A DNA stretch of 39,261 nt from assembly GCA_016282415.1 (NCBI GenBank), contig JAEEKO010000073.1, positions 1 to 39,261 of the forward strand, written 5' to 3'. Positions 34,082 to 37,178 of the stretch are shown piece by piece. The stretch comes from Bacillales bacterium (GTDB lineage: Bacteria; Bacillota_I; Bacilli_A; RF39; UBA660). A program made the translations under genes and the position numbers. Numbering within the stretch: position 1 is the stretch's first letter; the number at the start of each line of letters is the position of its first letter. The notes under the pieces were generated by a model, which was not told where the DNA came from, did no database searches, and saw only the letters and a program-made list of their open reading frames with translations.

Positions 34082-34363
34082 ATGAATAAAGAAGAACCAC
34101 ATTATTTAAAATTTAATAGTGAAAACGAGAAAAAGAAATATGAATTAATGAAGATGCATAATCAAATGAATGCTGCTCAAAAAGCTACTTCAAGTCAAAA
34201 GACGAATAGTGCCCAAGTATTAAATCTCGTTTCCAATAAAACTGGTCAAAGTAATGTTACTAATGATTCATCAGGATTTACTAATGCCTTATTGGTAACA
34301 TTAATTACCGGATTTGTTGGTGGGATTATTGCCACAGTGTTATTTATTTTCTTAAACAGGTAA
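34082..34363 (+). CDS. Hypothetical protein with C-terminal TM anchor
   Basis: GGTGAT RBS; SSGFTNALLVTLITGFVGGIIATVLFIFL. Confidence 0.7.
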   Translation: MNKEEPHYLKFNSENEKKKYELMKMHNQMNAAQKATSSQKTNSAQVLNLVSNKTGQSNVTNDSSGFTNALLVTLITGFVGGIIATVLFIFLNR

Positions 34364-34373
34364 GGTGATTTAA

Positions 34374-35126
34374 ATGACAATGGAAGAAGCTAATAATGAA
34401 ATATTAAAAATCAGCGAAAACCCAGGATTAAGTAGTGATGCTAAAAAGAGTCGTATTCGTGTATATCAAACTTATATTATGAGTTTGAATAGTGAAGAAG
34501 AAATCTTTAGGGCAATGAAAGAATATACTGCTTCAGTAGGAATTTTTATAAGATTAACAAACGGATTGTATCAATGTCTTCCGAAGGTTGCTGATAATGA
34601 ATTATTCTTAAGGGGTTATATTTTAGAATCGAGTGTTTGTAAAGAATTAGCAGCAAAAAATATTAATTATACTCATACCGATTTAAAATTAACTTATATT
34701 CCTGAATATGAAGCAAGATATAATGCGAATTTATCTGATGTGTCAGCGGCAATTTTGTTATATGATCATATTTTAAAAATTCAGAATATTAAAAACAATC
34801 AAATAACTACGGTATCTCATAATTTAGCTGAGTTATTAAGTTCGGAGATTATTTATAAAGAATTAAGACAAAAATATGTTGATCGTAGTGGTCACGTAGC
34901 GGTGAAAACAATTACTAAATCAAAGGAACAATTAGAACAAGATTACCAAAAAGCGATTATTATGATTAATGAACTATATAATCATAATATGGTGTTAGAT
35001 AACGCTACTAAACAAATTGCATTAGATTTAATCCGTGATTTATTTGATAGTTACCAAGAAGATAAGTTTAAATTTCCAAGTGTTTTAATCGATCAAATTG
35101 ATACTCCAGATAATCTAATTGCATAA
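34374..35126 (+). CDS. Hypothetical helical protein
   Basis: 250-aa ORF with AAGGTGAT RBS; no motif recognised. Confidence 0.7.
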   Translation: MTMEEANNEILKISENPGLSSDAKKSRIRVYQTYIMSLNSEEEIFRAMKEYTASVGIFIRLTNGLYQCLPKVADNELFLRGYILESSVCKELAAKNINYTHTDLKLTYIPEYEARYNANLSDVSAAILLYDHILKIQNIKNNQITTVSHNLAELLSSEIIYKELRQKYVDRSGHVAVKTITKSKEQLEQDYQKAIIMINELYNHNMVLDNATKQIALDLIRDLFDSYQEDKFKFPSVLIDQIDTPDNLIA

Positions 35127-35130
35127 TTTT

Positions 35131-35159
35131 TTGACAAAAATCATTAATTTTGTTATATT
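35131..35159 (+). promoter_or_regulatory. sigmaA promoter of the T-box/HAD/tyrS unit
   Basis: TTGACA-N17-TATATT with extended TG. Confidence 0.8.
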
Positions 35160-35165
35160 TAATTT

Positions 35166-35302
35166 GTTAGTGATGAACAGCCTTACAACCTGGGAGCTAA
35201 ATCGTTAATTCGCGTTATGAATGAAAGTGCATGATAACTCATGAATTAAGGTGGTACCACGGAAATGTTTCGTCCTTAAGTTCAATGAGTTTTTTATTTT
35301 TT
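35166..35302 (+). ncRNA. T-box riboswitch (Tyr), ultrashort Stem I
   Basis: AATTAAGGTGGTACCACGG...TTCGTCCTT antiterminator; TAC 35184-35186 in apical loop of K-turn-like stem; upstream of tyrS. Confidence 0.85.
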
Positions 35303-35318
35303 AAGTATGGTGATGATA

Positions 35319-35942
35319 GTGATTAAACGACTTATATTTGATCTAGATAACACGCTTATAAAGTGGAAACCAGAGTATTTAAATGCCTTAAATCGGGCTT
35401 TAACTGAAAACAATTATCATATTGATCCTAATATTATTAATGAGTTGTTTCATTCTTATGAAGAAAACTATAATTATTATGATCAAGAAGTACTATTAAA
35501 TTATATTAATAGTAAGTTAGATGATGAAATAACGCCGAAAGTATTAGATGATTTTTTAGAATATATTGGTTATATGAGTGATTCTGATCAAGAAGTAATT
35601 GATACTTTAGAATACTTAAAAGATAAATATGAAATGGTGGTATTAACTAGATGGTTTGGTAAACCTCAAAGTAAACGATTAGAAACCGCCGGAATCTTAA
35701 ATTACTTCCAAGAAGTAGTTGGTGGTGATGAGATTATGAAGCCGCATCCTGATGCTTTTAAACTAGCAATGGGCGGTAGAAAACCAAGTGAATGTGTTGT
35801 AATTGGTGATACTTATGATGTTGATTTAATTCCAGCACAAAATTTAGGAATTAAACCCATCTTTGCTAACTTTAAAGATTTAAATAATCCCAATAATTAT
35901 CAAACCATAAAATCATTTAAAGAATTAAAAGATATTTTATAG
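35319..35942 (+). CDS. HAD-family hydrolase (YjjG-like)
   Basis: IFDLDNTL, KPHPDAF, IGDTYDVD; probable GTG start after GGTGAT. Confidence 0.9.
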   Translation: MIKRLIFDLDNTLIKWKPEYLNALNRALTENNYHIDPNIINELFHSYEENYNYYDQEVLLNYINSKLDDEITPKVLDDFLEYIGYMSDSDQEVIDTLEYLKDKYEMVVLTRWFGKPQSKRLETAGILNYFQEVVGGDEIMKPHPDAFKLAMGGRKPSECVVIGDTYDVDLIPAQNLGIKPIFANFKDLNNPNNYQTIKSFKELKDIL

Positions 35943-35957
35943 AAAGAAGGAATAAAG

Positions 35958-37178
35958 ATGAAATGTTTTGAAGATTTAGAGTGGAGAGGACTTATTAAAG
36001 ATATTTCGAGTCCAGAACTTGCTGATAAATTAAATAATGAACAATTAACTTTTTATATTGGAACTGATCCAACTGCTGATTCAATGCATATTGGACATTT
36101 TTCATCATTCTTAATTGCAACTCGTCTTGCGAAGTATGGCCATAAACCAATTTTATTAATTGGAGGTGCTACTGGTTTAATTGGAGATCCTAAACCAACT
36201 GCTGAGCGTAAGATGATTACGAAAGAAGAAGTTGAAAAGAACGTTCTTGGATTAACTAATCAAGCCAAGAAAATCTTTGGCTTTGAAGTTGTTAATAATT
36301 ATGATTGGATTTCTAAAATTAACACTATTGATTTCCTAAGAGATTATGGTAAATATATTAATGTTAATTATATGTTAGATAAAGATATTATTAATCGTCG
36401 TTTAGATACTGGTATTACGTTCTGTGAATTTGCATATACTATTTTACAAGGTTTAGATTTCTTAGAATTAAACAAAACGCATGGCGTTACCTTAGAAGTT
36501 GCTGGTTCTGATCAATGGGGTAATATTACTACTGGAATTGAACTTGCTCGTAAAAAAGATAATATTGAGTTATACGGATTAACAATGCCACTTGTTCTTG
36601 ATAGTAACGGGGTTAAATTTGGTAAGACGGAAGGTAATGCATTATGGCTAGATATTAATAAAACTTCAAGCTATGAATTATATCAATATTTAATTAATAC
36701 TGCTGATAGTTGCGTTATTGATTACTTAAAGAAATTAACTTTCTTAACCAAAGAAGAAATTGAAGCAATTGAAAAGCAACATAATGAAGCTCCAGAATTA
36801 AGATTAGCACAAAAGAAATTAGCAGAAGAAGTAATTACATTCTTACATGGTAGTGATGAATTCAATCATGCTTTAGAAGTATCACAAGCTTTATTTAGTG
36901 ATAAGATTACTACATTAACTAGTAAAGATATTAAATCTTCATTTAATGGAGTTCCAACCTTTAAAGTAGAGAATATTAATATTGTTGATTTATTAGTTAA
37001 TAATGGTATTTGTTCTTCTAAAAGAGAAGCTCGTGAATTTATTAATAATAATGCTATTTCGATTAATAACACAAAGATTAATGATGAAAACTTAGTTATT
37101 AATGATAGCATGTTAATTGATAATGAAGTAATGGTATTAAAGAAGGGTAAGAAGAATATTTATCTAGGTATTAAATAG
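35958..37178 (+). CDS. tyrS: Tyrosine--tRNA ligase
   Basis: DPTADSMHIGH, GGATGLIGDP, GSDQWGNI, KFGKT, S4 domain. Confidence 0.97.
   Translation: MKCFEDLEWRGLIKDISSPELADKLNNEQLTFYIGTDPTADSMHIGHFSSFLIATRLAKYGHKPILLIGGATGLIGDPKPTAERKMITKEEVEKNVLGLTNQAKKIFGFEVVNNYDWISKINTIDFLRDYGKYINVNYMLDKDIINRRLDTGITFCEFAYTILQGLDFLELNKTHGVTLEVAGSDQWGNITTGIELARKKDNIELYGLTMPLVLDSNGVKFGKTEGNALWLDINKTSSYELYQYLINTADSCVIDYLKKLTFLTKEEIEAIEKQHNEAPELRLAQKKLAEEVITFLHGSDEFNHALEVSQALFSDKITTLTSKDIKSSFNGVPTFKVENINIVDLLVNNGICSSKREAREFINNNAISINNTKINDENLVINDSMLIDNEVMVLKKGKKNIYLGIK

Follow-up and report, generated by a model that had tools for sequence, protein, structure and literature searches.

A conserved minimal tyrosine T-box leader with neither elbow clamp nor Stem II in a family of gut Bacilli

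PMC10482949 sorts T-box riboswitches into three classes, of which class I combines a long Stem I carrying an elbow motif with Stem II. As far as the accessible text of the structural literature goes, the tRNA is held by the elbow platform of Stem I, by the S-turn of Stem II at the codon-anticodon helix, or by both, and the platform is said to be needed for speed in transcriptional T-boxes. Transcriptional T-boxes generally need a long Stem I with the elbow-binding motif, ultrashort Stem I forms are translational, an RNA with a truncated Stem I and no Stem II has barely detectable affinity for tRNA, and Stem II is thought to be dispensable only for the G/C-rich glycine codon (all from the accessible text of PMC7583486). 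Here we describe a leader ahead of tyrS, the gene for tyrosyl-tRNA synthetase, in a 39,261-nucleotide (nt) stretch of DNA from a Bacillales bacterium (contig JAEEKO010000073.1 of assembly GCA_016282415.1; the whole stretch is called the window below). The leader has neither of the two elements, carries the tyrosine codon UAC in the apical loop of an ultrashort Stem I and is followed by an intrinsic terminator. This minimal tyrosine T-box is real and conserved, and judging from its sequence it is probably functional; it is likely to be a working transcription-attenuation riboswitch for tRNA-Tyr that controls an HAD-tyrS operon with its decoding part reduced to a minimum.

With reporting by E-value, the Rfam T-box model RF00230 aligns end to end with positions 35164-35280 at 59.9 bits (E 1.5e-12), which is 33 bits under the Rfam gathering cut-off of 93 bits; at curated Rfam thresholds no RNA family match was found anywhere in the whole window. 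In the alignment, 78 Stem I positions of the model are represented by 9 nt and the Stem II columns are empty, and the IIA hairpin, F-box, purine string, Stem III and antiterminator are placed with high posterior probability. The distal elbow clamp of Stem I, formed by an AG bulge and a distal loop as interdigitated T-loops, is missing. A preliminary description of this locus, made from the sequence alone, had proposed a K-turn-like stem with UAC in its terminal loop and had noted the lack of both Stem II and an elbow clamp, and the alignment bears it out on each of these points (Table 1). The kink-turn (K-turn, or GA motif) consists of a GAU bulge followed by G-A, A-G and A-G pairs, and the linker from Stem I to IIA is two bases long. 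What the preliminary description took for a short linker after Stem I corresponds instead to a IIA/B-type pseudoknot with an F-box, and the GAAA-capped Stem III that it placed at 35214-35238 is present in the minimum-energy fold of the single sequence but is not a conserved helix; the covarying Stem III lies at 35230-35243. Stem III is framed by the motif 5'-RRRxG-Stem III-AA-3' as defined in the accessible text of PMC7583486 (here AAGUG-CAUGA/UCAUG-AA, 35225-35245), and the discriminator is canonical throughout, with RRRxG, Stem III, AA, a UGGN-ACC bulge and a U 3' of the terminal A2 pair. From its start to the terminator the leader measures about 140 nt, or about 117 nt without the terminator, and the specifier UAC agrees with the tyrS gene of the window. 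As a separate observation, one low-depth metatranscriptome contig (X1, depth 2.9) has T instead of the K-turn G at 35175, which may be a sequencing error or a strain variant.

Table 1. Positions of the leader elements, expression signals and downstream genes in the window
Feature	Coordinates	Strand	Basis or detail
Sigma-70-type promoter	35131..35159	+	11/12 consensus matches, with TG
-35 element TTGACA	35131-35136	+	17-nt spacer to the -10 element
TG of the spacer	35151-35152	+
-10 element TATATT	35154-35159	+
Ultrashort Stem I, UUAGU-GAU-GA-A-CAG-CCUUACAAC-CUG-G-GA-GCUAA	35167..35200	+	Rfam alignment, covariation
C-stem, UUAGU with GCUAA	35167-35171 with 35196-35200	+	Stem I
K-turn	bulge GAU 35172-35174; G35175, A35176, A35177 facing A35195, G35194, G35193	+
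3-bp helix, CAG with CUG	35178-35180 with 35190-35192	+	Stem I upper helix
9-nt apical loop, CCUUACAAC	35181..35189	+
Specifier UAC (Tyr codon)	35184..35186	+	anticodon-loop-like context C-U-UAC-A-A, 35182-35188
Stem IIA/B pseudoknot element	35203..35222	+	aligned to IIA columns; no Stem II ahead of it
IIA, CGU with GCG	35203-35205 with 35212-35214	+	hairpin 35203-35214
F-box CGUUA	35213..35217	+
IIB, loop AUUC with GAAU	35208-35211 with 35219-35222	+	GAAU four bases past IIA hairpin
Stem III with purine flanks	35224..35245	+	AAAGUG 35224-35229, AA 35244-35245
Stem III helix, CAUGA with UCAUG	35230-35234 with 35239-35243	+	loop UAAC 35235-35238; covariation
Antiterminator	35247..35278	+	RF00230 posterior probability near 1 throughout
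A1, UAAGG with CCUUA	35247-35251 with 35274-35278	+	antiterminator
T-box bulge UGGUACC	35252..35258	+	between A1 and A2
A2, ACGGA with UUCGU	35259-35263 with 35269-35273	+	antiterminator
Intrinsic terminator, enclosing type	35237..35302	+	minimum-energy fold
Terminator 5' arm	35237-35251	+	Stem III 3' strand, linker, A1 5' strand
Terminator 3' arm	35274-35290	+	A1 3' strand and downstream bases
U tract, UUUUUUAUUUUUU	35290..35302	+	directly after terminator helix
HAD-family hydrolase open reading frame, first regulated gene	35307..35942	+	HAD_2, 1.7e-17
Likely start GTG of HAD hydrolase	35319	+	preceded by GGUGA 35309-35313
tyrS, tyrosyl-tRNA synthetase	35958..37178	+	tRNA-synt_1b 2.3e-67, SYY_C-terminal 1.5e-23, S4 1.8e-05

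The leader shares with class I, as represented by B. subtilis tyrS and RF00230, the basal K-turn, UAC followed by a purine, the IIA/B pseudoknot with F-box CGUUA, the purine string, Stem III, the UGGN-ACC bulge, the A1 and A2 helices, an intrinsic terminator and the tyrS target. It differs from class I in lacking a specifier internal loop with its S-turn, the AG bulge, the distal loop and the Stem II S-turn, in placing the codon in the apical loop, and in having a terminator that encloses A1 instead of replacing it. Class II, with B. subtilis glyQS as its example, is likewise transcriptional and devoid of Stem II; glyQS, however, has a long Stem I with the elbow clamp, a single-stranded linker in the place of the Stem II domain and a G/C-rich glycine codon (accessible text of PMC10482949), whereas the window leader has a short Stem I, retains the pseudoknot and carries the A/U-rich UAC. 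Class III comprises the ileS leaders of Actinobacteria such as Nocardia farcinica and Mycobacterium tuberculosis, which resemble the window leader in their short, clamp-less Stem I with an apical specifier, their K-turn and their IIA/B pseudoknot. In the accessible text of PMC10482949 and PMC7583486 these leaders need Stem II, have a codon loop of 5-6 nt, act on translation and are specific for isoleucine. By contrast, the window leader lacks Stem II and its S-turn, has a 9-nt loop, is associated with a terminator rather than with translational control, corresponds to tyrosine and belongs to a Bacilli host. No current T-box class (I, II or III) accommodates it. The literature search found no non-glycine T-box lacking both Stem II and the clamp and no enclosing terminator; the main comparative papers and their supplements were outside this search and might mention such leaders.

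Conservation was assessed on 99 leaders, 92 of them distinct, which were aligned to a covariance model. The degenerate pattern used for retrieval left every helix position unconstrained (N) and did not include tyrS, and among the loci analysed it hit only ultrashort leaders. Across the 92 distinct leaders, standard pairs make up 98.6% of 2391 helix cells as compared with 87.4% in shuffles, changes on both sides are seen in 22 of 26 pairs, and the observed pairing values are matched by 0 of 500 shuffles; when the partners are slid by 1-3 columns, only 34-54.5% of the cells pair. Changes on both sides affect all five pairs of the C-stem (helix 1, 99.8% of cells paired), all three pairs of the upper Stem I helix (helix 2, 98.9%) and all five pairs of Stem III (helix 4, 98.3%), IIA being helix 3 and A1 and A2 being helices 5 and 6 of the alignment. 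The upper helix alone occurs as CAG/CUG, GGA/UCU, GGA/UCC, GAG/CUU, AGG/CCU, UGG/CCA and UAG/CUA. For IIB, the longest complement between the loop and the downstream bases averages 4.03, compared with 3.33 in permutations (maximum 3.57 of 200), and it is formed by many different pairs, at an offset of 4-5 in 62 of the leaders. Such complementary changes in relatives support the predicted IIA/B-type pseudoknot, and the spacing from Stem I to IIA is held at 2-3 nt in 92/92 leaders.

In the rows derived from the retrieval pattern, loop bases 3-9 were fixed by the pattern and GA was fixed on both strands for most rows, so the unbiased figure for the loop comes from 21 leaders found with a covariance model (R1). 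This model was trained on three short leaders and used to search 151 family genomes, and its best 31 loci include 21 true ultrashort leaders, the three training sequences among them. The other ten were rejected as minimal leaders, being only the 3' halves of ordinary T-boxes, and since low-scoring loci of the model are 3' halves of this kind, the 74/151 genomes obtained in that search are not a count of minimal leaders. UAC, the U preceding it and the purine following it are each present in all 21 model-found leaders, and 20 of these have GA on both K-turn strands. Most leaders have the apical loop A-U-U-UAC-R-A-C; the window leader and a small number of others have C-C-U-UAC-A-A-C.

The preliminary description had proposed comparing the loop codon with the synthetase gene downstream, and a glycine counterpart makes the comparison favourable: its codon, the fourth base of its bulge and its synthetase are all changed together. 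This minimal glycine T-box, 143 nt in length, was found in one relative (G126, L201:140-265), and related loci (L202-L207) were recovered as well. It is composed of a promoter, a K-turn, a helix of 4 bp in G126 and 4-5 bp across the loci, a 7-nt loop (CUGGCAA), the bulge UGGAACC and an enclosing terminator, has no IIA/B pseudoknot, and in G126 is followed by a small gene and then by the gene for GlyRS. The glycine pattern is present in 6/401 family genomes, each of them with GlyRS downstream (6/6); the exact pattern was not found in the window genome. Its helix covaries (GAGU/ACUC, UUCU/AGAA, GGGA/UCCU, GGAU/AUCU, UAGU/GCUA), and since loop GGC, bulge UGGA and GlyRS change together, the codon in the loop follows the identity of the synthetase. 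The seven inner loop bases conform to Y-U-NNN-R-A in both the tyrosine and the glycine minimal forms. Y-U-NNN-R-A is also the consensus of the tRNA anticodon loop (Y32, U33, anticodon, R37, A38).

Since the promoter ends at 35159, the RNA is predicted to begin about 1 base before the Stem I hairpin, near 35166 and roughly 86 nt ahead of the UGGUACC bulge; the preliminary description had arrived at the same start and at a distance of about 85 nt. When 80 nt upstream of each distinct leader were scanned, the best -10 element ended 7-11 nt before the first base of Stem I in 80 of the 92, and the best upstream promoter scored at least 10/12 in 74. That the -10 element abuts Stem I in 80/92 argues that no longer Stem I is hidden upstream.

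The preliminary description made no mention of a terminator, which the minimum-energy fold of 35164-35302 (-25.5 kcal/mol) does contain. As its two arms are 35237-35251 and 35274-35290, the terminator lengthens A1 downwards and uses the 3' strand of Stem III without unwinding A1, and A1, the bulge and A2 remain folded inside it. By fold prediction, the terminator retains A1 and would compete with Stem III, and a U tract follows. A simple terminator scan of the window leader found none because the stem contains a 7-nt bulge; folding does find it. A hairpin with a U tract is present in 90/90 ultrashort leaders with enough downstream DNA, and the U tract begins 2-18 nt after A1 (6-18 nt in all but one). 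The terminator is of the enclosing type in 54 of these 90. In 29/90 the minimum-energy fold does not keep A1, and most of the 29 have a downstream segment paired with the 5' strand of A1 and usually also with that of the Stem III 3' side. A textbook terminator is found in 7/90 ultrashort leaders and in 7/25 full-length Tyr leaders of the family. Another 17 of those 25 full-length leaders have the enclosing terminator, a layout recorded among loci L010-L040 and L047-L161 and not peculiar to the short form.

Based on these features, a scheme can be proposed in which transcription would begin about 1 nt ahead of Stem I, and Stem I, with its K-turn, 3-bp helix and 9-nt loop, would display the inner bases Y-U-UAC-R-A in the shape of an anticodon loop. 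UAC would be offered to the GUA anticodon of tRNA-Tyr in a loop-loop contact, the loop being of the U-turn type with its codon pre-stacked, and neither a distal double-T-loop elbow platform nor a Stem II S-turn would take part. The IIA/B pseudoknot would sit directly 3' of the K-turn and, with no more than 3 bp between K-turn and loop, could be positioned alongside the codon-anticodon helix in place of the Stem II S-turn. The discriminator (purine string, Stem III, A1, UGGUACC and A2) would pair with the uncharged ACCA end and, because it is canonical, sensing of the uncharged 3' end should work as in the solved T-boxes (accessible text of PMC7583486). If tRNA is absent, the bases downstream of A1 (35279-35290) would be bound by the linker and the Stem III 3' strand, generating a long hairpin that meets the U tract and stops transcription. 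Uncharged tRNA-Tyr would fix Stem III and the purines on the helix formed by tRNA and bulge, the 5' arm of the terminator would be withheld and read-through would follow, such that the decision point in the window would be Stem III. Binding of tRNA, the anticodon-loop-like fold, compensation by the pseudoknot and the switching logic are thus parts of the scheme that we infer from the RNA sequence.

The preliminary description had raised the possibility of a new minimal class of T-box without elbow clamp and Stem II, a suggestion that is supported by the conservation of the form in 92 leaders, its tie to tyrS, the predicted transcript start at the hairpin, its link to a terminator and the glycine counterpart. 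In our estimate the chances are even that these leaders represent a fourth T-box architecture. Such an architecture would have neither clamp nor Stem II and would act transcriptionally on an A/U-rich codon, against the rule that one of the two elements is needed; it would decode by means of an anticodon-loop-like hairpin (Y-U-NNN-R-A) 3 bp above the K-turn, with the pseudoknot replacing Stem II, and would switch by competition for Stem III and not for A1. It would further have replaced the full-length tyrS leader at least 10 times in one family of gut Bacilli and would have a smaller glycine twin.

Several points weigh against a functional riboswitch for tRNA-Tyr. The upper helix of Stem I has only 3 bp, the codon UAC is A/U-rich, unlike the G/C-rich glycine codon, and the accessible text of PMC7583486 predicts poor tRNA binding for such an RNA, whose tRNA dependence we infer. 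The tRNA-Tyr gene was not among the 20 tRNAs found in the assembly of the window genome, and the covariation alignment was fitted to our own model and so favours the modelled structure. Finally, an RNA-library contig (97-99% alike) spans 35106-35352 and thus extends from about 60 nt upstream of the predicted start, the metatranscriptome evidence being assembled contigs that cannot show start, end or strand and that may reflect DNA carry-over. One rival reading is a degenerate relic, a T-box that lost most of Stem I by deletion and now terminates constitutively and leakily or no longer regulates. The score under the Rfam cut-off (59.9 vs 93 bits), the very weak tRNA binding that published work predicts for this architecture and the full-length Tyr leaders seen in close relatives, G002 of the same genus among them, would all be compatible with decay. 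We nevertheless regard a relic as highly improbable, given that 92 distinct leaders share the 3-bp helix and 9-nt loop, that each of the eight Stem I pairs shows compensatory changes, that UAC is found in 21/21 model-found leaders, and that the leader form is retained where the neighbouring TyrS has diverged to about 38% identity; a decaying remnant would not retain the K-turn, the loop, the pseudoknot and the promoter spacing.

The constancy of the loop bears in the same way on an attenuator that does not read the anticodon, in which the discriminator alone would sense uncharged A73-CCA ends and the hairpin would serve for folding or protein binding. A fully canonical discriminator joined to a decoding module without both known affinity elements is what such an attenuator would look like, but the probability that we assign to it is very small: UAC, the U before it and the purine after it are kept in 21/21 model-found leaders, and the joint shift of loop (GGC), bulge (UGGA) and gene in the glycine form is expected only if the loop is read. 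The affinity deficit must, however, be offset somehow, and a protein, either of the L7Ae type that binds K-turns or of another kind, might replace the elbow and Stem II contacts. YbxF and other members of the L7Ae family may stabilise the K-turns of T-boxes (accessible text of PMC7583486), and the G-A pairs of the K-turn are conserved here, although in most rows the GA of either strand was already set by the retrieval pattern. The need for such an extra factor seems unlikely to us, as no conserved extra gene adjoins the leaders (tyrS follows directly in 61/92), with no search having been aimed at K-turn-binding proteins, and as the other seven T-boxes of the genome keep a full Stem I, which argues against a genome-wide substitute.

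In an order-level sample the short form was found in 18/151 genomes and 11/86 genera, all of them within the family of the window. A pattern scan of a species-genome collection gave at least 119 species genomes with this architecture; among the matches listed, all are in gut metagenome-assembled genomes, which are labelled as Bacilli, Tenericutes, Mollicutes, Erysipelotrichaceae, Mycoplasma, Clostridium sp. CAG:594, Candidatus Coprovivens and Muribaculaceae, the last of these probably being a binning label. The lineage is probably the one named RF39 in GTDB. Of the 90 loci with DNA available downstream, 89 have a tyrS gene there. The gene comes immediately after the leader in 61/92 distinct leaders, follows an HAD gene in 12/92 and follows other genes in 16/92; one locus (L143) has only a weak partial TyrS match downstream, and two of the 92 are without downstream DNA. 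The TyrS proteins encoded beside ultrashort leaders have diverged to about 38% identity with that of the window at the lowest. The gene itself was found in 61/61 sampled genomes of the family, and a scan of the tyrS loci of 29 relatives gave a T-box in 25. Of these Tyr leaders, 24 measure 163-202 nt, have a long Stem I and lack Stem II, and one (G048) is 117 nt long like that of the window. Within the genus of the window, one genome (G001) has the same short hairpin, and in another (G002) Stem I is full length. With RF00230, five ultrashort relatives reach 53.5-60.4 bits, and among the 45 RF00230 T-boxes of five genomes with a short Tyr leader, the only short ones are the Tyr leaders, at 117-120 nt, and one Gly leader of 143 nt.

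A single family, and even a single genus, contains both full-length and minimal tyrS leaders. A tree of the first 262 residues of TyrS was computed with a quick IQ-TREE search from 84 short-leader and 25 full-leader loci, six rows having been dropped for containing too little of tyrS; its sampling is uneven, the short leaders coming from the collection-wide pattern scan and the full-length ones from the family sample. On this tree the label short or full must change no fewer than 18 times, compared with a mean of 23 when the labels are shuffled, and well-supported branches force at least 10 of the changes. The window and G001 are sister to a locus with a full-length leader (L010). In G002, the tyrS with a full-length leader (L040) encodes a TyrS that is far from that of the window on the tree. 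This points to a joint replacement of gene and leader within the genus. The short form may have arisen either by repeated truncation or by movement of leaders through recombination.

Eight T-box matches were found in the source genome (G000; 0.9 Mb, 85.5% complete). Apart from the tyrS leader, all seven are full length (181-204 nt) with full Stem I motifs and precede ileS, serS, hisS, pheS and other genes, indicating that the minimal form is specific to one gene and is not genome-wide. Five of the eight score below the Rfam gathering cut-off (89.1, 68.8, 66.7, 66.1 and 59.9 bits, on contigs C30, C41, C12, C18 and C91; L004-L008), so routine annotation would miss most T-boxes of this lineage. 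The minimal leaders, which score below the cut-off, are likewise missed by standard annotation. TBDB states that sequences shorter than 100 nt were removed, as far as its accessible text goes; the window leader, at about 117 nt without the terminator, is not under this limit.

As the tRNA-Tyr of the window genome itself was not assembled, the comparison with tRNA uses a genome of the same genus. An RF00005 search of G001 gave a tRNA-Tyr whose anticodon GUA lies in the loop CUGUAAA, whose discriminator is A and whose CCA is encoded. The bulge UGGU is complementary to its ACCA end, as the preliminary description had assumed. The window genome encodes MiaA (PF01715, 201.7 bits), and A37 of tRNA-Tyr is therefore probably isopentenylated. 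An extended 5-bp pairing of UUUAC with bases 34-38 of tRNA-Tyr (GUAAA), which would make up for the missing contacts, was considered and set aside, being weakened by MiaA and A37 and by the C that stands two positions before the codon in the window.

A conserved, terminator-controlled Tyr T-box without either element would be a natural counter-example to the rule that calls for an elbow platform or an S-turn, and a natural test case for how little RNA suffices to read a tRNA. Because full-length tyrS leaders occur in the same family and genus, the two forms can be compared directly to measure what each module contributes. Leaders of about 140 nt would in addition be compact tRNA-responsive parts.

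Upstream of the leader, two open reading frames between efp and the leader, 34082-34363 (93 aa) and 34374-35126 (250 aa), gave no Pfam match at E up to 0.001. Downstream, the HAD-family hydrolase gene stands between the Tyr T-box and tyrS and is presumably co-regulated with tyrS by the charging of tRNA-Tyr, an arrangement with an HAD homologue in this position that recurs in 12 of the 92 distinct leaders.

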